IMG/VR virus record: IMGVR_UViG_2706794699_000012
Direction: 5' to 3' (one strand)
DNA length: 48,572 bases
Source: a virus
Taxonomy: Duplodnaviria > Heunggongvirae > Uroviricota > Caudoviricetes
Below the pieces are notes generated by a model. The model saw nothing but the letters and a program-made list of their open reading frames with translations, did no database searches and was not told where the DNA came from. The stretch's first letter is position 1. Each line of letters opens with the position of its first letter. Positions 1 to 27,991 of this stretch are shown in pieces. The position numbers were made by a program, and so were the translations under genes.

Positions 1-212
1 CACAACATCCGAGGACAGCATCGTCCGCTGGCCCACAGAAGTCCGGAAAGTCATGGAAGGTCGTTGTTGGGAGGAGGTACAAATTCTCTCATGCAAAAAA
101 TACGTAAAATCGATAATAGCTGGAAATAATTCAATACATGCACTCTCGAAAGTGCATCAGCCAACCGCAGAACGTTATTGCATACAACGTTTCTGCGGCA
201 TAATCCCAATGA

Positions 213-833
213 TTACTCCCTGACAGGGTTCGTAGGCCACTCAATATCAGGTGCAGTTGACGTATCAACACGGTTCAGCAATACCCGATACTTTTTCCAT
301 GCTTCCAGCAACGAGATTTCTTCCTCCGTTGCAATTTCCAGATCTGCAGCATCCTGAAGCGGCGCAATATGCTCACTGGCTACCTGCATCAGGTTGTTTT
401 TTGTTTCTTCCGCCTCCCGGATCCGGAACAGTTTTTCTGCTTCCGTATCCTTCACCCAGGCTGTGCCGTTCCACTTCTGAAACNNNNNNNNNNNNNNNNN
501 NNNNNNNNNNNNNNNNNNNNNNNNNNNNNNNNNNNNNNNNNNNNNNNNNNNNNNNNNNNNNNNNNNNNNNNNNNNNNNNNNNNNNNNNNNNNNNNNNNNN
601 NNNNNNNNNNNNNNNNNNNNNNNNNNNNNNNNNNNNNNNNNNNNNNNNNNNNNNNNNNNNNNNNNNNNNNNNNNNNNNNNNNNNNNNNNNNNNNNNNNNN
701 NNNNNNNNNNNNNNNNNNNNNNNNNNNNNNNNNNNNNNNNNNNNNNNNNNNNNNNNNNNNNNNNNNNNNNNNNNNNNNNNNNNNNNNNNNNNNNTTTTAT
801 GGTCCGTGGTTGTTCACTCATTCTGAATGCCAT
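213..833 (-). CDS. tfa: tail fibre assembly protein (Tfa); interior N-masked
   Basis: C-terminal translation (...[29 protein letters not shown]) is typical of lambda/Rac Tfa; start overlaps stf stop by 1 nt; 484-794 is N. Confidence 0.75.
484..794. other. N-masked block (311 nt) inside tfa
   Basis: Run of n characters. Confidence 1.
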
Positions 834-4527: not shown

Positions 4528-7500
4528 TCAACGAATACTGATGCCGGAAGCCGCTTTTTTGGTCACAATCACCGTACAGTCGGTGATATTGCCTGCCCCC
4601 TGATTGCCTTTCTGGAAAATCTTAAACTCCAGAGTGACGCTACCACCACCACTAGGCATATCAATAACTGCACTGTAACTACCGGGAATGGCACCTTTAG
4701 TTTCTCTGGATGCGATTAATACGCCGTTTTTGCGAACTTCAAAACCATAACCCGTGTATCGCGTGCCTCCCGGGTTATTTCCGCTCCCCGGATCGTCATA
4801 CGCTATACCGTTAAAAATAATGGGCGGAATAATAATCTGGCGGTCAAAGTTATGATCATCGCTGATGGTGACTGTAACCGTACCGTCTGGTGTTTCCGTG
4901 TTACCCCACGTACCGACTTTTTTCGGGAAGGCTTTTGATACAGCTTTAACGAAATCCCCTCTGACCTGGGTCGCCTCCAGCATGCCCTTAATCGTACAGT
5001 TCTGGTTAATCGTGACATTGTTGAGCGTTCCTGAGTTCGCATTCACACTACCACTGATATCCGCATTTTTAGCGGTCAGCTTTCCGTCTGATGTCAGGGA
5101 AAATACCGGAGGACTGCCACCGCTGGTAATGGCGGGGGCTGTCAGGCGCTTCAGGAACACGTCGTTCATGAATATCTGGTTGCCCTGCGCCACAAACATC
5201 GGCGTTTCATTCCCGTTTGCCGGGTCAATAAACGCGATACGATTGGCGGCAACCAGAAACTGGCTCAGCTTGCCTTCCTCCGTGTCCTCCATGCTGAGGC
5301 CAATACCCGCGACATAATGTTTGCCGTCTTTGGTCTGCTCAATTTTGACGCCCCACATCGCATTCCATTTATCGTTAGCGTCCTTCCACTCTTTCGAAAA
5401 CTCATCCAGTCTGCTGGCGTTATCCTCCGTCAGATCAACTTTTTCCAGCAGCTCTTTACCGAGATGGGATTCGGTTATCTTGCCTTTGAAAAAATCCAGG
5501 TAACCTTCCGCATCATCGCTCGCCCGACCGACGGCCTCCACGAATGCCGATTTGCCAACGGTGTTCACACTGCGGATATAAAAGTAATAATCATGGCCCG
5601 GTTTGATATTGATACTGGCGGCTATCCAGTACAGCCCCGCGCCAAGGTAGCGGGCTGTGGTTTCAACCTGCCTGATATCGGTAATCCGCGTTTCCGAGAA
5701 CCAGAACTCAAACTGTACCGTCGGATCATAAACCGCAAGATGCGGCGTGGCAGTTATCTGAAAATAGCCCGGCGTCAGCTCAATCCGCGACGGTGCTACC
5801 GGTGCGGCAATCCTGAACGATACCGACGCCGGATCGCCCTGCTGTCCCCAGGCATTTACCGCCCGGACTGTCAGCGTGTACCGTCCCAGCGCCAGTTGCG
5901 TGAAGCGGTATGTGGTTTCCGTCGTCCGGGCCGTGCTGACCAGCCGCTCACTGNNNNNNNNNNNNNNNNNNNNNNNNNNNNNNNNNNNNNNNNNNNNNNN
6001 NNNNNNNNNNNNNNNNNNNNNNNNNNNNNNNNNNNNNNNNNNNNNNNNNNNNNNNNNNNNNNNNNNNNNNNNNNNNNNNNNNNNNNNNNNNNNNNNNNNN
6101 NNNNNNNNNNNNNNNNNNNNNNNNNNNNNNNNNNNNNNNNNNNNNNNNNNNNNNNNNNNNNNNNNNNNNNNNNNNNNNNNNNNNNNNNNNNNNNNNNNNN
6201 NNNNNNNNNNNNNNNNNNNNNNNNNNNNNNNNNNNNNNNNNNNNNNNNNNNNNNNNNNNNNNNNNNNNNNNNNNNNNNNNNNNNNNNNNNNNNNNNNNNN
6301 NNNNNNNNNNNNNNNNNNNNNNNNNGCCGTCAGGAACACGGCTCACTTTCACCTTCACGCCGTCGGTGACGGACTGAACCTCCACGCTGACCGGATTGCC
6401 ACTTCCGTCAACCAGGCTTATCAGCATGGTACCGGAGGATGGCAGCGTGATTTCACGGTCGAGCGTCAGCGTCCGGGTCTGGCTGTTTACCGCCAGCACG
6501 CGCCCGCCGATGCTGATACCCGCATAGTCATCATCACAGATTTCAATGACATCGCCCGGCACATGGCGAAGCCCTTCTGCGCCCACGCTGAAGTCCACGG
6601 TCTGCGTTTCCAGCAGTTCTGTTTTAATCAGCCACAGCCCGGCGCGGTGTGCCTGCCCCCGGCTGGTACAGCCAAAAGCATCCATCTTCGTGACGTTACG
6701 ACCGTAACGGGCAATGGCCTGCGTATCCTCCACAAGCTCTGTCGCCGTCTCCCAGCCGTTATCCGGGTCAATCCAGTTCACCTCAACGGCATTATGGCGG
6801 TCTTTCAGGGCGCTGAAGCTGTAGCGGAACGGCGCGCCATCATCCGGCATCACCACATTACTGCGGTTATAGGTCCACACCTTATCCGACGGTCGGTCCT
6901 GCACGAACGTCAGCGTCTGCCCGTTCCATACCGGCATACAGCGCATCGCCGAGCAGAAATCACTGAGCACATCCCACGCCTTGCGCTGTGTGGTCAGGTA
7001 CGCATTACAGGTGATGCGCGGCTCCGTGCCGCCAAAGCCGTCCGGCACTGACTGGTCGCAGTACTGGCCGATGACATACAGCGCCCATTTGTCCACATCC
7101 GCCGCACCAAGACGTTTCCCCATGCCGTAGCGCGGGTGGGTCAGCATATCCCACAGACACCAGGCCATGTTGTTGCTGTATGCTGGTTTTAACGTTCCGT
7201 CCCAGATACCGCTGTATTGTCGCGTCTGCGGGTTATAGTTCGACGGCACCTGCAGAATGCGCCCGCGAAGATGATAATTACGACTCACCTGCTGGCTGCC
7301 GAACTGCTCCGAGTCCACCTGTACGCCGACCAGTGCAGTGTTCGGGTAGCACTGTTTCACATCGATGATTTCGGTGTATGACGACCAGAGCGTTTTGTTC
7401 TGCAGCTGGTCTGTGGTGCTGTCCGGTGTCATCCTGCGCATCCGGATACTGAACGGGCGCGGAGGCAGGTTATCCACCACCACCGAGACCAGATACTGCG

Positions 7501-19473: not shown

Positions 19474-20589
19474 TTAAATCCCTGCTTTTCTGAATACCTG
19501 TGCATCACGCTCACGGAGCTGCTTCAGCGTCAGCCATTCGCCTTTATCGGTGTAAAATTCATCTGGCGACATACCACCATCCCGAATCAGCTTTGCTCGG
19601 CTTTCCCCCACAATCTGTTTTTGTCTGGTGTAAGGCTGACGCAAAAACCATTCCCTGTAGGTTGTATCTCCGGCCACCACGCCATCCATGCTGGCCCGCT
19701 CAGCCGGGGAAATATCGCGAACATCAATACCCAGTTCCTTCGCTGATTTCAGAATGAACGTTTCCGTTGAGCGGCAGCAGAAATGAATTTTTCCCGGCCC
19801 CTGCAAATAAGGCACGCTGTGACCTACAGGTTTATTATTCAGCGTATATTTGAGGCGATCCCTGATTCGACATTGTGGCGTAGTACGATTATCAAGCGTT
19901 GATAACCATTGCTTACCCTTAATCAAATCATTATTCGCGCTGGCAAAACTCTCACGGGCAGTAGCAGCAAGATGTCCAACCGCTGTTTTTGCAATGCTGG
20001 CCGCATTAGCCCGGCTCATCTGCAATGCACCATCCTGAAATCCCTTACTGACATGTCCCCGAATTTTTCTTGCGATCTGCTCATTGGTATCCCCCAGCAA
20101 AAAACCCTGACGCACTGTATTTGTTATGCGTCTGAGCCGATCCGCCTCAAGATCTGAGGCCCACTCACTGAGCAGTCGTCCCTGGAATGGTCGCGCCATT
20201 GCAGCGGCATAAAGTGCATCAGGAGAGATACCAACCAGAGGGTGAACATCAGCAACAAAATCAGGTAGCATAGAATCAAACAGACTTAACTGATAACCAG
20301 CCTCATAAATTGCCAGCTCGTTCAGCTCTCCGGAGAGACTGGTAAACATGCTGTTAATAGCAGTGCGGTTAACCTCTCTGACGCTCGCCAGAAGTGACTC
20401 CAGGCGCTTAACGGTAAAACTACCTGGATCGAGGCTGTCCAGTGCTATCAGCAGGCGAGCAGTAAGTTCCGCATCGCTGTCATTCAGTATTTTCACCATT
20501 CTGGCAGCCACGCCAGTGCTATAGCGGGATATCCAGACTGCATGAGCAATTGATTCATCACGCAGCCGTTCATTCACGGTTTGCATCAT
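19474..20589 (-). CDS. phage head morphogenesis protein (Mu F / SPP1 gp7-like minor head protein)
   Basis: 371 aa directly downstream of portal, overlapping it by 20 nt. Confidence 0.7.
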   Translation of the reverse strand: MMQTVNERLRDESIAHAVWISRYSTGVAARMVKILNDSDAELTARLLIALDSLDPGSFTVKRLESLLASVREVNRTAINSMFTSLSGELNELAIYEAGYQLSLFDSMLPDFVADVHPLVGISPDALYAAAMARPFQGRLLSEWASDLEADRLRRITNTVRQGFLLGDTNEQIARKIRGHVSKGFQDGALQMSRANAASIAKTAVGHLAATARESFASANNDLIKGKQWLSTLDNRTTPQCRIRDRLKYTLNNKPVGHSVPYLQGPGKIHFCCRSTETFILKSAKELGIDVRDISPAERASMDGVVAGDTTYREWFLRQPYTRQKQIVGESRAKLIRDGGMSPDEFYTDKGEWLTLKQLRERDAQVFRKAGI

Positions 20590-21978: not shown

Positions 21979-23289
21979 TTAAATCCGAAGTGATGTGACT
22001 CTTCCGGTCGGTTTGACAATAGGGAATTGCTTAACGATGAAATAACCTCCGGCATCATTCGGGTGATCATTGCCAGATTTTTTATCAGGCTCCCCCTTCT
22101 CATCCCAGACCTGTTGCTCCAGAGATTCGGCATATAACGGGCAACGCTTCACATTAACTTTATAGCGACGCTCACCATTGGCATTGCAGAACATTGCATT
22201 CATTGAGTTAACGCGATCTTTTACTGGCGGGTTCGAGCTGTTCACCACAACGTTAAAACCAGCCTGCTTAAGCTGGGCTATATCCGTCGTACTTGCGTTA
22301 CTTGATTTTCTGGAATCCCCGGAAGCATCTGGATAAATATAAATTTCCCTCACTTTCCGGTAATCATTCCCATCATACAGCCAGAAGCGTTCTTTAATGA
22401 TGCGGATCATATCCGGCGTATCGTAGGCATTGATGATTTCAGTTACCGCACATGGAAGCCCCAAACGCAGCACATGGACGATTCCCGCCATCTTTCCAAC
22501 GTTAAAATCCATCCCAATATAAATCGGCTCCCCTGGCTGCTCCACTTCTTCGCAATTATTCAGTTTCCGGTCAAACTGATGGTAAACAGTACCACTTGTC
22601 AGGTTAGTAAACTGTCCTCGAAGATAGGCTTTAATCAGCTCTGGAGGGTATGATTCAAGAAGCGAAGGAATGTAATCTGCTGGCAGGTTCTTTTCATTAT
22701 CGAAAGTAGATGCCTGCACCAGACCATACAGTGAGGCCAGCTCTGTTTTTTCACGCACGGCTTTAACAAACTGCTCGTAGACAAATTTGAATCCTTCCGG
22801 CGTGGTTGTAACGTCAATACCGTTGCGAAGTCCATCAATCTTATAACGCATACGTGCAATTATCTTGCGCCACGCCGTTCTGGCTTTTTCCTTCGGCAAA
22901 ATGTCCAGTTCATCCACCAACGCATTACCAATTTTGAAACCGACGATCGTTTGTGGCTTCTCCATCGATCTGCAGATAGTGGTTCCCCGATACTGGCGTC
23001 CGTAATAAAAGTGAACCTCTTTATTTCCCTCATTAATTTTTACGTTCAATCCCCAGTCAGCAGCAACTTCTTCCACTGTAGGGTAAAAAATATCGCGAAT
23101 TTGGGGATACGTTGGCGCAAAATATCCCTGATTTATACCTGGATGCTCCCAAATCCCCTTGCATATGCCGCCACACCCAACCCATGTTTTGCCCGAGCCA
23201 AAACCAGCAATATAGGCTTTAAATTTATGGGGCATTGAAAGAAATCGCGCCTGAGGCACATTAAGCGTCGGAGAGATCATCTTCATCAC
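21979..23289 (-). CDS. terminase large subunit
   Basis: Walker A-like GFGSGKT near N-terminus; 436 aa; between small terminase and portal. Confidence 0.85.
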   Translation of the reverse strand: MMKMISPTLNVPQARFLSMPHKFKAYIAGFGSGKTWVGCGGICKGIWEHPGINQGYFAPTYPQIRDIFYPTVEEVAADWGLNVKINEGNKEVHFYYGRQYRGTTICRSMEKPQTIVGFKIGNALVDELDILPKEKARTAWRKIIARMRYKIDGLRNGIDVTTTPEGFKFVYEQFVKAVREKTELASLYGLVQASTFDNEKNLPADYIPSLLESYPPELIKAYLRGQFTNLTSGTVYHQFDRKLNNCEEVEQPGEPIYIGMDFNVGKMAGIVHVLRLGLPCAVTEIINAYDTPDMIRIIKERFWLYDGNDYRKVREIYIYPDASGDSRKSSNASTTDIAQLKQAGFNVVVNSSNPPVKDRVNSMNAMFCNANGERRYKVNVKRCPLYAESLEQQVWDEKGEPDKKSGNDHPNDAGGYFIVKQFPIVKPTGRVTSLRI

Positions 23290-24355
23290 TCCTTACTCTG
23301 GCATCAACCACATTAATATTGATCGCCACAGGCTGGGGATGTTCATTATCTTCCACCGTTTCGATCTCTTTGCGCAGCTTCTGGTTTTCCATTCTGCGCC
23401 GTTCAATTTCCAGTTCCCGTAGCCGCTTATCTGCACATAAAGCCCCGCCAGCAGAAAACAAACGCAACAATTCACGCCGGGCGGCAGCCTTATCCTCCAG
23501 CAGGATCTCAACGCCGAATTTTCCGAATTTTGCCCCTGCATATAATTGCCGCGCATCCCCATCAAGCAGAGTGGTATCAGCCATATAAAGCTGTCCCGTT
23601 CCCTCACCGCAGCACTTCGGGCAGTCCGGATTGGGTATGGCGTTATCAACAAAGCCGAGGCCTCCATATTCCGGTTCGGGTTTGCCATCTCTGGAAGCCT
23701 GCGCCGCTGCCTTGTCGAATTCTGCTATATCGCGCCACTGGTAGAGATGATTCTCGCCCCAGCAATAACGGCAGTTAACACGGCGAAATTGTGCAAGCTG
23801 ATTGGGGTCGGCCAGGACAATAGCCATCAACTGACTCACTAGTAAATCCAGGTCTGCGGTATAGCGTTTCTGGTACTGATTGCGGAAGTAGCTGATAGCG
23901 CGAAAAACCCTGGCATTTCTAAGCATACGACTGGCGTTGCTGTTAGCTGTCGCACCTTGCCCCTCATAACCGGCTAGTCGGTACGCCTCTGTCGGCTTTT
24001 TACCCTGAGCAACAAGCATCGCAAACTTAGCCTGCTGGTCAGAAATGCCGAATTCATCGGGACAGAACGAAAATTCCTCCGCGTCGCCCTCATTCAGGCC
24101 CGCATCGAATACTGGCTTTTTTTCCTGAGATTTTTCGTTCCGCTTTTGTGCAGTCTGCGCAGATTTTTTCTGCGCACTTTTTTGCGCAGTTTTGCACATT
24201 TCTGTCTGCGCATTTTTCGGAGTTTTTTTGATGTAACGACGGGCTGTTGCGTAATTCAGTCCCCTTGCTTCACACCATGCCACCGGAGATATACCGGAGC
24301 GGGTGTATTCAGCAATATACTCCTGCTGCAACGCCCCCCAGTCCGGTCTGCTCAT
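23261..24355 (-). CDS. terminase small subunit (DNA-recognition), with low-complexity AQK-rich linker
   Basis: N-terminal HTH-like segment (ISPVAWCEARGLNYATARRYI), then KTAQKSAQKKSAQTAQK, C-terminal coiled coil; overlaps terminase large start. Confidence 0.6.
   Translation of the reverse strand: MSRPDWGALQQEYIAEYTRSGISPVAWCEARGLNYATARRYIKKTPKNAQTEMCKTAQKSAQKKSAQTAQKRNEKSQEKKPVFDAGLNEGDAEEFSFCPDEFGISDQQAKFAMLVAQGKKPTEAYRLAGYEGQGATANSNASRMLRNARVFRAISYFRNQYQKRYTADLDLLVSQLMAIVLADPNQLAQFRRVNCRYCWGENHLYQWRDIAEFDKAAAQASRDGKPEPEYGGLGFVDNAIPNPDCPKCCGEGTGQLYMADTTLLDGDARQLYAGAKFGKFGVEILLEDKAAARRELLRLFSAGGALCADKRLRELEIERRRMENQKLRKEIETVEDNEHPQPVAININVVDARVRSDEDDLSDA
24146..24215. repeat. four palindromic TGCGCA hexamers separated by T-tracts inside the terS 5' region (candidate pac site)
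   Basis: ctgcgca at 24155, ctgcgca at 24170, tgcgcag at 24183, ctgcgca at 24206, each followed by a run of T. Confidence 0.5.
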
Positions 24356-24358
24356 CAG

Positions 24359-24610
24359 TTAGTCCTGATTTTTATCCACCCTGAGTAGTTCGCGCAGAGC
24401 AAAGGCATCCCCTTTTCTGGCAAGCTTAAACAATGCCGCTCGTAACTCGGCTTCACCTTTCGCTCTGCCCTTACGGATGGCCGCATAAAAATCTGTCATT
24501 GCTTCCCGATTTTCTTTCAGTCGGTTCAGATCAACATCCAGAACGTCAGCGATTTGTTGTGCAGTCATCCGGCACGCTGCCAGAGACTCGACTTTCGAAT
24601 ACGGAATCAT
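24359..24610 (-). CDS. small hypothetical protein upstream of terS
   Basis: 83-aa ORF, stop overlaps terS start; start overlaps upstream gene so the true start may be internal. Confidence 0.4.
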   Translation of the reverse strand: MIPYSKVESLAACRMTAQQIADVLDVDLNRLKENREAMTDFYAAIRKGRAKGEAELRAALFKLARKGDAFALRELLRVDKNQD

Positions 24611-25478
24611 TTGTCACCCCCATTGATATGCAGGGTGTCTTCTTCCTGTATTTTTCGTGAAGGATTTTTACTGCAGCGTTGTTCCAGGTGACCTGATGGT
24701 GAATGCGTTTATGACTGGCACCCATAAGTGAGATTTTTACGCACGACGGCGCATACATGACGGAGTAAAAACTTTTAACGTAGGTTCCGGAATCCAGATA
24801 CAGCTCGGTCATTCCGCCGCTGTTTTTCTGCGTCTGTTTCTGCCCTAACTGGACAGCACCGATCGTCATAAACAATTCACCACAGCGACCGAGATTCGTG
24901 TACGTATTCACATCCTCGTTAATGCGCCCCATGAATGAGAACGGTCGATCAACCGAACAGATAAAGCTGTTCATTGCCTTGCGTTTCACCCACGAAGCAT
25001 GGCCGCCATTGTCACCAAGAAAATCCCCGCCCTGCGACATAGCGATGGAAAGAGCAGGTATTGATTCGTAGTACGCAAGCATTTCAGAAAGGATCTCATC
25101 CAGTTTCCTTATCGGGAAATAGGCCTGGTCATAGTTGCGATCCACCCGAAACTGGAACTCGTGATAATCATCATCGAGCTGAATGAAGTATTTACACCCG
25201 ACCAGTTTTGCCTGGTCGAAACAGGCATTACGGGCGTAAAAAATTGAGCGGCGGTCACTAAAATTATCGGCTTCGTCAAAACGACTAGCAATATCGGCTT
25301 TGGAAAATACCAGCACCTGTTCACCAAATTCAGCCATGTACTGATGCCGTGTCTTATCTTCATCATCAACAACGATAAAAATTTTCCCGGTATAGCCAGC
25401 ACGACGCAACGTCCGGTAAGTCAGAACTTTGTCCGGTCGCCCGTGAGTCAGAATAAAGGCGCAAAAATCATCACGCAT
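24546..25478 (-). CDS. hypothetical protein with GT-A-like acidic motifs (VVDDED, LDDDY)
   Basis: ATG at 25478 preceded by GGAGGAGGAA and overlapping the ParB-like stop; motifs ILTHGRPD...IFIVVDDEDK...QLDDDY resemble a nucleotide-sugar transferase fold. Confidence 0.5.
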   Translation of the reverse strand: MRDDFCAFILTHGRPDKVLTYRTLRRAGYTGKIFIVVDDEDKTRHQYMAEFGEQVLVFSKADIASRFDEADNFSDRRSIFYARNACFDQAKLVGCKYFIQLDDDYHEFQFRVDRNYDQAYFPIRKLDEILSEMLAYYESIPALSIAMSQGGDFLGDNGGHASWVKRKAMNSFICSVDRPFSFMGRINEDVNTYTNLGRCGELFMTIGAVQLGQKQTQKNSGGMTELYLDSGTYVKSFYSVMYAPSCVKISLMGASHKRIHHQVTWNNAAVKILHEKYRKKTPCISMGVTNDSVFESRVSGSVPDDCTTNR

Positions 25479-26259
25479 ATTCCTCCTCCCCGCCATGCAT
25501 GATCTCCACCATGCGCTGCGTCATTCGGACAAATCCATTTTCAATAGCCTGCTGATAATCAATGATCACCAGCGCCGACTCCTCGAAAAGGCACTGAATT
25601 TCAGCGGGGGCATGAGCGTAATAGTCCGCAATTCTGCTGAAATTAAACACCGTGTGACGTTCTGCTGCACACAGGAGGAATTTCTCAATATCAGGATCAA
25701 GGGACGCCGAACGTATCCGGCTGATCAGCTCCTGAGTTTTCGTATCGTCGTACAGTTCACTGATATCCGGTTTACCGCCTGACGGCTCATAAACAGGCGT
25801 ATCAATTTTCGTCGTATACGGCTCCTCCTCATTTCCTGTACCGGGCAAAACATCCGTCAACAGTTCATCAATTTCTGCCGGGATGAAGCCTGTCAGGGAG
25901 ACATCAAAATCAGCATTGATTAGGTCCGACAGCTCCATCCGCAACAGATCTTCATCCCAGCCAGCATTCATCGGCAGGCGATTATCTGCCAGGCGGTACG
26001 CCTTTTTCTGCTCATCCGTCAGGCCAGACAGAACAATGACCGGAACAGAATCCATTTTGAGCATTTCAGCCGCCATAACACGACCGTGACCCGCAATAAT
26101 TTCGCCCTTTTCGTCAATCAGCACCGGATTAGTCCAGCCGAATTGCTTAATACTTTCTACCAGTTGTGCCACCTGCTCAGTACTGTGCGTCCTGGCGTTG
26201 TGCGCATACGGTGACAATTCTTGTAATGGGCGATAGACTATCTTTAATTTCTCGCTCAT
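25471..26259 (-). CDS. ParB-like nuclease domain protein
   Basis: N-terminal ParB/Srx-like motif ...PVLIDEKGEIIAGHGRVMAA...; 262 aa. Confidence 0.75.
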   Translation of the reverse strand: MSEKLKIVYRPLQELSPYAHNARTHSTEQVAQLVESIKQFGWTNPVLIDEKGEIIAGHGRVMAAEMLKMDSVPVIVLSGLTDEQKKAYRLADNRLPMNAGWDEDLLRMELSDLINADFDVSLTGFIPAEIDELLTDVLPGTGNEEEPYTTKIDTPVYEPSGGKPDISELYDDTKTQELISRIRSASLDPDIEKFLLCAAERHTVFNFSRIADYYAHAPAEIQCLFEESALVIIDYQQAIENGFVRMTQRMVEIMHGGEEEYA

Positions 26260-26396: not shown

Positions 26397-27854
26397 TTAG
26401 GAGCGCCAAAAAAAACCTGAAAACAATATAATAACAGGATAAATTTCAAGGCGACCAAGAATCATAGCTATGCACATTAAATATTTTGCAATGTCATTAA
26501 GCACTCCGAATGACGATGCAGTAGCCCCAAAACCTAATCCCATATTATTAATACATGCAGCCACTGTTGCAAATGATGTAAGAAAATCATATCCCATACC
26601 ATTTAACACCAGTATAAAAAACACCGTGAAGAGAGTATAAAGAAAAAAGAAACTCCATACAGACCTCATTACACGATCTGTAACTATCTTCCCTCCTACA
26701 TTTACACTCAACAACGCTCTGGGATGAGAAAGCTGATTTATCTCGTGTTTGCTTTGTTTGAAAAGTATAAGAAATCGAAGTGACTTAATTCCACCACAGG
26801 TTGAACCTATACATCCCCCAAAGAAACTTGACAACAGCAAAAACACTATCGTGTGCGTGGGCCAGTTTGCATAATCCTGCGTAGCTAAACCATTATCAGT
26901 GAGCATGGAGCTGGCAAGAAAAAACGAATGAATAAAACTTCCATGCAAGTCATACATACCTATATGCCAGACCTGGAAAGAGGTAACAATGATCACCCCT
27001 AAGGCTATTAACAGAAAGAAACGAAGTTCAATATCTCTGATTAAAGGTTTTATCGTTTTTCTGCTAATAACAATATACCAAAGAGTGAAGTTGAAAGCCG
27101 ATAGCAGGGAAAAAGAACCAGCCACCAGCTCAACCAAATAGTTATTAAAATATCCGATACTCTCGCTATGAGTTGAGAAACCACCAAGCGAAACTGTGGA
27201 AATCCCGTGACAAATAGCATCAAACAAAGGCATTCCTGCAAGTCTATAACAGACAATACAAGCAATACCTAATAAAGAATAAGTTATCCACAGTGTCCGT
27301 GACGTATCGGCCAGGCGGGGAGTGAGTTTGTCATCCTTAAATGGCCCCGGCATTTCTGACTGATAAAGCTTTGCACCACCAATACCCAATAATGGCAATA
27401 CTGCAACCGCCAGAACAATAACTCCTAAACCACCTATAAAATTTAACTGTGACCGATAGTACAAATATGCCCGAGGTAATGAACTAACATCATCAATTAC
27501 AGTTGCTCCTGTTGTTGTTATTCCAGAAACCCCTTCAAACAGAGCATCAATGAACGTTAAATTAAGTTCTGAGTCAATCCATAAAGGGAATGCACTAATA
27601 ACAGAAAACAAAATCCAAAACATTACAATTATAATAAACCCATCACGGGTACGTAATTGAATGCCAGATTTCTTAGTTGTATACCACGCTCCGCCACCAA
27701 TGCAAAAAAATATAACGAAAGTTATAAAGAAAACGAACAGGCTTTTTTCTTTATAAAACAATGCTACAACCATTGGTGGCAACATTGAAAGACTATAGAG
27801 CCAAACCAGGAACCCACACATATGAGTAACAACTCTTACATGAGATGTATTCAT
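26397..27854 (-). CDS. trkG: Trk potassium uptake protein TrkG (prophage moron)
   Basis: Multi-pass membrane protein; start MNTSHVRVVTHMCGFLVWLYSL gives 485 aa, matching Rac TrkG as recalled; visibly AT-rich relative to flanking genes. Confidence 0.9.
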   Translation of the reverse strand: MNTSHVRVVTHMCGFLVWLYSLSMLPPMVVALFYKEKSLFVFFITFVIFFCIGGGAWYTTKKSGIQLRTRDGFIIIVMFWILFSVISAFPLWIDSELNLTFIDALFEGVSGITTTGATVIDDVSSLPRAYLYYRSQLNFIGGLGVIVLAVAVLPLLGIGGAKLYQSEMPGPFKDDKLTPRLADTSRTLWITYSLLGIACIVCYRLAGMPLFDAICHGISTVSLGGFSTHSESIGYFNNYLVELVAGSFSLLSAFNFTLWYIVISRKTIKPLIRDIELRFFLLIALGVIIVTSFQVWHIGMYDLHGSFIHSFFLASSMLTDNGLATQDYANWPTHTIVFLLLSSFFGGCIGSTCGGIKSLRFLILFKQSKHEINQLSHPRALLSVNVGGKIVTDRVMRSVWSFFFLYTLFTVFFILVLNGMGYDFLTSFATVAACINNMGLGFGATASSFGVLNDIAKYLMCIAMILGRLEIYPVIILFSGFFWRS

Positions 27855-27991
27855 ATCTAAATATTCTTTCAATTATAACCACCTTGCTGCAATATTATGA
27901 TTATACTGTATAAAATTTAACTCCTCTTAGATCTTACTTCACTGTTCCTTATGAAACAATCATCAAAATGAATCATATTGTAGTTAAGATT

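Follow-up and report, generated by a model that had tools for sequence, protein, structure and literature searches.

The choice of DNA for packaging, the starting points of lateral and generalised transduction and the mobilisation of satellites or plasmids all depend on the packaging initiation (pac) site of a phage, which to our knowledge has been located in only a minority of the temperate phages of enterobacteria. In phage lambda, a cos phage that is nicked precisely at cosN, several short cosB R-sites by the small-terminase gene are bound by the N-terminal helix-turn-helix (HTH) of gpNu1, positioning the large subunit; these R elements are 16 bp long and act with IHF. The pac of P22 is a single 22-bp asymmetric site, and the P22/Sf6-type pac lies inside gene 3 or gene 1. 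In phage P1, the pac site spans 161 bp within the pacA gene and contains seven hexamers, which hold a Dam site (PMC10028697). PacA acts in pac recognition and cleavage at these hexamers, which are needed for efficient packaging and whose synonymous recoding lowers the titre about 9-fold (PMC10028697). The pac of SPP1 and SF6 (pacL-pacC-pacR) overlaps the start of the small terminase gene and has direct repeats, and the SPP1 pac DNA has A/T runs 5-7 long among GC steps (PMC4737164). In the LF82 prophage Gally, the coverage of virion DNA peaks within the small terminase gene (PMC9928086). Here, we analysed an array of TGCGCA hexamers located inside the small terminase gene, terS, of a Rac-like lambdoid prophage of E. 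coli. The prophage is contained in a stretch of 48,572 nucleotides from IMG/VR record IMGVR_UViG_2706794699_000012, which is referred to below as the window. The array is probably the recognition part of the pac site of this prophage, which is presumed to package by the headful mechanism.

The window carries recE, racC, kilR, sieB, ydaT, trkG and a ynaK-like gene with a ParB_N domain, and the minus strand carries all the late genes, including all neighbours of terS. The segment comprising terS and the adjacent upstream open reading frame (ORF) (23261-24610), the only stretch queried, is 100% identical to E. coli strain EC2. The terS product matches Pfam Terminase_2 (PF03592) over aa 122-321 with 34.5 bits (gathering cut-off 26.1) and PHROG 51 with an E-value of 7e-75. 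The original prediction had placed the array inside a small terminase gene, and these matches bear this out.

The array region at 24146-24215, corresponding to terS codons 47-70, reads ttgtgcagtCTGCGCAGattttttCTGCGCActtttTTGCGCAGttttgcacatttctgtCTGCGCAtttttcgg. It contains four perfect TGCGCA palindromes (24156-24161, 24171-24176, 24183-24188 and 24207-24212) and two copies with one mismatch (TGTGCA at 24147-24152 and TGCACA at 24193-24198), all six slots lying within 66 bp. CTGCGCA is present three times and TGCGCAG twice, and a T-run of 4-6 nucleotides starts 0-3 nt after each TGCGCA copy. Both one-mismatch slots are perfect TGCGCA in most allelic relatives; the E. coli alleles fill 4-6 of the slots, at terS nt 144, 158, 168, 180, 195 and 204. 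The total of TGCGCA in the window is 21, against a chance expectation of 20.8. Meanwhile, four copies in 60 bp represent the top clustering of any non-trivial hexamer in the 48.5-kb window. None of 300 dinucleotide-preserving shuffles reached four copies in 60 bp (208 gave one, 90 gave two and 2 gave three). When the one-mismatch copies were counted, there were six sites per 70 bp versus a window mean of 0.36. Thus, the four CTGCGCA/TGCGCAG-type copies, each followed by a T-run, that had been noticed earlier are read directly from the DNA, and their clustering goes beyond that of shuffled sequences.

The DNA just before the array encodes the N-terminal module of TerS. This module is ~45 aa long and has the consensus MAKPDWxxLQ..F....A.TGISPKDWCEAQGLNYxTA[R/K]RYIK, the array beginning within a few codons of its end. 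The AlphaFold2 model of TerS, which is based on a shallow alignment, has a mean predicted local distance difference test (pLDDT) score of 48.7 and is confident only in two HTH regions. The first of these is the module, with helices at residues 6-20, 24-31 and 35-38 (pLDDT 70-84). The second, G1P-like HTH begins at about aa 99 and is therefore not the first domain of the protein, as it follows the module and a linker of ~50 aa; this domain (aa 99-160) gave a weak hit to a small terminase. For the N-terminal module, the Pfam, NCBIfam and PDB sequence searches returned no named family, only a weak match to the IS66 TnpA HTH below the cut-off, and the Foldseek search of the TerS model against PDB returned nothing at E < 0.1. 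The profile of the module was then compared with PacA of P1 using hhalign. It aligned with PacA aa 3-41 with a probability of 92.7% and an E-value of 4.3e-7, the shared residues being W...F...G......LN..TARRY. The N-terminal module is thus a homologue of the N-terminal part of PacA of P1.

The module is fused to differing TerS cores. One is the Rac-like Terminase_2 core and a second type is found in Klebsiella phage ST846-OXA48phi9.2 and E. coli phage PHB10; further cores carrying the module are those of the Yersinia vB_YenM phages, Providencia phage PSTCR3, Klebsiella phage RothC, Pasteurella phage Pmp11 and Aeromonas phage phiARM81mr. The array was present in every module-bearing TerS type examined, whatever the core. 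In the reverse test, 120 viral-contig stretches with three TGCGCA copies at gaps of 3-10 were searched for the strict codon pattern W-C-x3-G-L-N-Y-x2-A-R-R-Y, which was found right beside the array in 68 of them. Six of the strict-pattern negatives were read: three were ARRH variants of the module (one of them on a core of the Shiga toxin (Stx) phage type), one was another TerS-like HTH and two were unrelated, so that four of the six are TerS genes whose HTH module is a variant. The search for homologous proteins returned only relatives with more than 80% identity and added little. The comparison with the terS genes of related phages, which had been suggested together with the original prediction, thus showed that the array recurs beside the N-terminal HTH module across TerS cores and that, in the sequences compared, the two are constantly adjacent.

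Several observations were made on relatives with an altered module or array. In phage Rac-SA53 (1351-2379 of its sequence, L102), the annotation of terS reads 'gpOterS; fusion of two genes by deletion', and the end-point of the deletion lies inside the array. The module is gone and the array is degenerate (TTCGCA, TGCGCT, TGCCCA), with one site in the tested stretch, which is not above the coding expectation; this suggests that the Rac-SA53 prophage may have lost pac recognition. In the Erwinia and Izhakiella relatives, the N-domain is another one, and four GGGGCA/TGCCCC words come after it. The P-values for this motif and for the GATCAT motif of the Stx-phage type described below are optimistic, as both motifs were picked after inspection of the sequences. 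An unrelated high-GC viral contig (L346) contains two triple arrays of TGCGCA (4593-4626 and 5463-5496) just upstream of two paralogous small ORFs (MRIYNEPMSNIKP… and MRIHIEPMSNTSP…), both arrays being intergenic and probably in a regulatory setting.

As the array is part of a coding sequence, it could be a by-product of a low-complexity, slippage-prone linker made of repeated (S/T)AQK codons, with no function at the DNA level. Indeed, the region codes for an AQK-rich segment that is modelled with low confidence, the period of the A-tracts is four codons, and the alleles differ by in-frame indels (+9, -12 and -27 nt) of the sizes that slippage would give. We examined this by codon resampling, in which the amino acids of terS codons 39-100 were fixed and synonymous codons were drawn from the prophage's own usage. 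In 12 module-carrying lineages, TGCG[C/A]A on either strand was observed 3-9 times versus 0.2-1.75 expected, with P <= 0.003 in 12 of the 12 lineages and mostly < 2e-4, showing that the protein does not predict the hexamers. The sites are also distributed among reading frames: the TGCGCA (R-type) sites of the 78 distinct sequences compared comprise 208 in frame 2 (xAQ), 53 in frame 1 (M/V/L-R-x) and 8 in frame 0 (C-A). The arrays of Superficieibacter, Serratia and Buttiauxella relatives (52-55% protein identity) cannot be aligned with that of the window and contain TGCGCA in all three frames, read as xxT-GCG-CAx (x-A-Q), xTG-CGC-Axx (M/V/L-R-x) and TGC-GCA (C-A). The degenerate slot of the window at 24193 reads M-C-K and is M-R-K in most alleles, i.e., a frame-1 copy. 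The related word TGCGAA codes for N-C-E-T in Pasteurella phage Pmp11 and for A-N in Yersinia and Klebsiella phages, where its reverse complement gives N-S-Q; these K-type sites are present in both orientations. About a quarter of all sites use another reading frame or the opposite orientation, and one DNA word underlies unrelated peptides (AQ, MRK, CA, AN, NSQ, NCET). Since in-frame slippage is unable to move a motif between frames, the selected object is the DNA word and the peptide its passenger. A purely coding or slippage origin of the array, to which we give hardly any weight, is essentially excluded by these comparisons, which show that the hexamers are under DNA-level selection independent of the encoded peptide. 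The linker (aa 45-94) has a pLDDT below 50, consistent with disorder, and its peptide sequence differs freely from one relative to another and tolerates indels, as fits a passenger peptide. The proposal that the same DNA serves both as the repeat and as the coding sequence of the TerS linker is thereby supported.

The hexamer type was further compared with the residues of the module. At residue 39, 55 Arg and one His are accompanied by TGCGCA and 22 Lys by TGCGAA/TTCGCA, so that all 78 distinct sequences agree with zero exceptions; no other position of the module correlates perfectly with the hexamer type. The arrays of the Lys class often contain the 12-bp palindrome TGCGAATTCGCA. Since Klebsiella phages include both hexamer classes, the reader of the word is phage-encoded and not host-encoded. 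Inside one class, the number, spacing and frame of the copies all differ while the word is homogeneous, which argues for continuing class-specific selection. The DNA of the module and the sites share ~200 bp and would therefore be inherited together as a specificity cassette. We tentatively propose, as a possibility that we hold with some reserve, that this is a portable ~200-bp 'pac-specificity cassette' moved by recombination among unrelated TerS cores, and that the change from R39 to K39 retargets it from TGCGCA to TGCGAA. Its range would include the Rac-like, Klebsiella, Yersinia, Pasteurella, Aeromonas and Stx-phage types and P1 itself. If true, this would represent a simple protein-DNA recognition code for packaging specificity (one residue, one base) and would bring a large family of temperate phages, Shiga-toxin phages among them, under the P1 pac paradigm. 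The allele with His39, from an IMG/VR E. coli prophage (L050; ATAHRYIK), retains five TGCGCA copies; either the variant is tolerated or the prophage was inactivated recently.

When compared with P1, the array is similarly located in the 5' part of the small terminase gene (terS nt 144-209), just past the DNA of the N-terminal HTH, and its hexamers are likewise embedded in more than one reading frame. Unlike the bipartite 4+3 site of P1, which is arranged around an IHF site and the cut (Table 1), it is a single array of 4-6 copies beginning 3 codons after the HTH. The TerS core is also of the Terminase_2 (G1P) type and not of the PacA type, and the large terminase subunit, TerL, is of the Terminase_6 type. 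Taken together, we infer that TerS recognises the array as a P1-like pac element whose hexamer is not that of P1 and which lacks both a Dam (GATC) site and a second arm.

Two groups of relatives show further cluster arrangements. The Klebsiella-type relatives (L096/L232-type) have a second TGCGCA cluster of three copies at terS nt 360-403, ~165 bp downstream of the first, which codes for IAQ, IAQ and VRT within the core-domain part of TerS (P = 0.0024 versus codon resampling) and resembles the two-arm HEX4/HEX3 layout of P1. In the Stx phages (933W-type; vB_EcoP_phi346, L343 1020-1170), TerS has a more remote form of the module (…NYNTARTRIK). After it come four (C/T)GATCAT repeats, which are 12 bp apart and contain GATC (Dam) as in P1, and two frame-0 TGCGCA copies (Cys-Ala). 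These repeats may mark the candidate pac region of the Stx phages.

The locus shares with SPP1 and SF6 the core family of TerS (Terminase_2, G1P), the position of the repeats in the 5' part of terS, and A/T runs interspersed with GC steps. It differs from them, where the shape of the DNA is read and the box repeats are not the binding determinant, in having the extra N-terminal HTH and exact hexamers that track this domain. Like cosB of lambda, it has a short site repeated several times in or beside the small terminase gene; in lambda, however, there is no sequence relation to the module, and the embedding of the sites in coding DNA is not comparable. P22 and Gally have TerS proteins of a different family (that of Gally is 140 aa long and lacks the module) and have no hexamer array. 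For this reason, the mapped start of Gally was rejected as a precedent for the present family.

The gene content of the window hints at headful packaging. Downstream of terL, there is a DUF4055 protein in the portal position followed by a P22-type coat protein, and these genes, together with the Terminase_6 TerL, are of the kind usually tied to headful packaging; they were counted, as indirect evidence, for a pac function of the array. The relatives of TerL are those of Jersey-like, K1G-like and HK578-like siphoviruses, which are reported to be headful packagers.

The original prediction also described the T-tracts of the array as phased. Eight T-tracts at 24117-24229 do follow a regular 12-bp (4-codon) period, with a phase coherence of 0.83 (99.9th percentile among the tiles of the window). 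For the helical repeat of 10.5 bp, the coherence drops to 0.21. The regular spacing thus stands, whereas helical phasing of the A-tracts was rejected; as the tracts are on a codon-linked and not a helical period, they give no indication of intrinsic planar bending. Where the array region ends, terS codons 77-79 (GAA AAA AAG, 24116-24124) contain a slippery heptamer of the dnaX type, A_AAA_AAG, which lies in the appropriate frame and is kept in most E. coli alleles. A -1 shift at this position would lead to a stop ~9 codons on and yield an ~88-aa protein consisting of the HTH and the linker. No evidence of frameshifting at this heptamer was found, and it may be a mere reflection of the Lys-rich coding.

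Two other explanations accept a role of the DNA itself. According to one of them, the region is wrapping or bendable DNA that the TerS ring chooses through its shape, as has been proposed for SPP1/SF6, and the exact hexamer is incidental. The TerS core does belong to the Terminase_2/G1P family, and the array has exactly the texture of A/T runs and GC steps seen in the SPP1 pac; moreover, the DNA-binding domain of SF6/SPP1 G1P binds pac DNA without sequence specificity (PMC4737164), so that repeats in a pac region are not always the recognised feature. However, recognition by shape predicts neither the exact conservation of TGCGCA (or TGCGAA) across lineages with differing spacers nor two discrete hexamer classes that track a helix residue, and the A-tracts are phased at 12 bp and not at 10.5 bp. 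We therefore regard it as quite improbable. According to the other explanation, the array is an operator through which the HTH of TerS or another phage protein, e.g., the HTH protein encoded by the upstream 83-aa ORF, controls terS or the late genes while packaging starts elsewhere; in a variant of it, the palindromes act as hairpins of the terS mRNA or as an antisense terminator. Selection at the DNA level and linkage to the HTH fit any function in which the module binds the array and do not single out packaging. Adjacent copies can also form an 8-bp hairpin, TGCGCAGA-5nt-TCTGCGCA, with an RNA fold z-score of -2.3, and the hairpin TGCGCAGA-TTTTT-TCTGCGCA at 24156-24176 (plus strand, antisense to terS), which is followed by CTTTTTT, scores as terminator-like. 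On the other hand, the hairpin potential is not conserved, since Pmp11 has eight TGCGAA copies of the same orientation in a row and the spacing ranges from 7 to 27 bp. No sigma-70-like promoter was predicted in 23800-24800, and the neighbouring genes are all on the minus strand. The module is part of TerS, a protein known to serve in pac recognition, and the module's homologue PacA acts at such hexamers, which makes an operator or RNA element less economical than a pac site. Overall, we consider this second explanation unlikely, though it deserves to be kept in mind.

The reading of the array as a pac element also has a number of points against it, the sequence-independent binding by G1P noted above being one of them. 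The spacing of the hexamers is irregular (7-16 bp), and the A-tracts are out of helical phase. Unlike TGATCA/G of P1, neither TGCGCA nor TGCGAA contains GATC, which leaves no control by Dam methylation. There is no second arm in the allele of the window and no IHF consensus near the array, the sole match to WATCAANNNNTTR in the window being at 19921. The literature searches returned no mapped pac site for Rac-like or related phages, and no mapped virion ends or TerS-binding data for phages with TGCGCA/TGCGAA arrays. The ends of two kinds of database records were considered as packaging ends and rejected: the vB_EcoS-xxx records are in-silico prophages, and hence uninformative, and the record of vB_EcoP_phi346 terminates within terS, but no mapping of the ends is given in its paper. 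Concerning residue 39, its codon is only ~20 bp from the array, so that the agreement between R/K and C/A could be due to the co-transfer of one recombination unit and not to a recognition code. The R and K types are interspersed on a tree of aa 1-35 with about 10 changes, but the tree is based on only 35 residues and is confounded by recombination and the 20-bp linkage, and these changes were not counted as independent events. Finally, P1 PacA has an R-type helix (TARRY) and yet its hexamer is TGATCA, which indicates that residue 39 alone cannot set the specificity. Compared with the original prediction, the pac reading has thus gained DNA-level selection, a tie to the HTH of TerS and homology to PacA, while the designation 'pac site' remains a prediction.

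If the array is a pac element, it might work as follows; the binding, the avidity of the oligomer, the position of cleavage and the direction of packaging are all inferred. TerS would carry its additional, PacA-related HTH at the N-terminus on a flexible tether of ~50 residues and, judging from its family, would oligomerise via the Terminase_2-type core. Several tethered HTHs could then bind the 4-6 TGCGCA hexamers in the very DNA that encodes this linker, and many weak contacts would add up (avidity), so that the phage DNA would be specifically marked. The irregular spacing of the hexamers (7-16 bp) would be tolerable for tethered domains. The G1P-like second domain, whose SF6 counterpart is non-specific (PMC4737164), could wrap the neighbouring DNA. 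TerL, presumably the nuclease and motor recruited by TerS, would cut nearby, and packaging would run to terL and the head genes, i.e., towards lower window coordinates.

About 900 of the 5,426 complete E. coli genomes contain the TerS family, which is also found in Klebsiella, Yersinia, Providencia, Pasteurella and Aeromonas phages. The present finding predicts, at the level of sequence, the pac recognition element of this widespread TerS family of temperate phages, and it links this family to P1, which has the one well-studied hexamer-array pac site. If confirmed, it could aid the design of transducing particles and phagemids, as with the P1 pac, and the prediction of transduction hot-spots beside these prophages. 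The coordinates of the features are listed in Table 1.

Table 1. Features of the terminase region of the window and of the P1 pacA gene. Positions in the window are counted from its first nucleotide; P1 positions are nucleotides or codons of pacA counted from its start codon in the annotated P1 record.
Feature	Position	Strand	Basis or remark
terS, small terminase subunit, 364 aa	23261..24355	-	Pfam Terminase_2, PHROG 51 'terminase small subunit'
terL, large terminase subunit, 436 aa	21979..23289	-	Terminase_6N/6C domains
PacA-like HTH module of TerS, aa 1-44 (...GLNYATARRYIKK)	24224..24355	-	Conserved module; AlphaFold2; hhalign
Codon R39 (CGT)	24239..24241	-	Sole residue co-varying perfectly with hexamer type
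Low-complexity AQK-rich linker, aa 45-94	24074..24223	-	pLDDT <50; first half holds the array
Second DNA-binding domain of TerS, aa 99-160	23876..24061	-	pLDDT 73-88; overlaps the start of the Terminase_2 match
Hexamer array, six slots	24146..24212	.	Positions and clustering; allele comparison
Eight T-tracts alternating with G+C hexamers	24117..24229	+	~12-bp period; A-tracts on the coding strand, mostly Lys AAA
P1 pacA, HTH-coding part	ends ~codon 42		
P1 pacA, four TGATCA hexamers	nt 193-235		Frames 1, 2, 2, 2
P1 pacA, IHF site	nt 256-268		
P1 pacA, mapped pac cuts	nt 276-285		
P1 pacA, three further TGATC(A/G) hexamers	nt 323-353		

An ORF of 83 aa (24359-24610, minus strand) is located directly upstream of terS with a gap of 4 nt. 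It matches PHROG 309 'terminase small subunit' (E 8e-23) at profile positions 145-218 of 319 and resembles a small HTH protein; a homologue is found at the equivalent site in the Serratia relative (L005) and not in the Klebsiella and Yersinia types. The 83-aa protein could be a second packaging-specificity factor or a regulatory factor.

Further upstream, a protein of the TET-associated glycosyltransferase (TAGT) family is encoded at 24546-25496 on the minus strand (Pfam TAGT, E 4e-34; annotated in RefSeq as 'GREB1-related'). It is adjoined by a gene for a full-length ParB_N/ynaK-like protein (25471-26259, minus strand), and the pair, which could be a DNA-modification module, sits between trkG and the terminase genes. 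In strain EC2, ynaK is a truncated pseudogene. The potassium transporter gene trkG (26397-27872, minus strand), a typical Rac cargo, is situated between the lysis genes and the block of ParB_N, glycosyltransferase and terminase genes. A headful series that proceeds from terS towards terL would head away from trkG.

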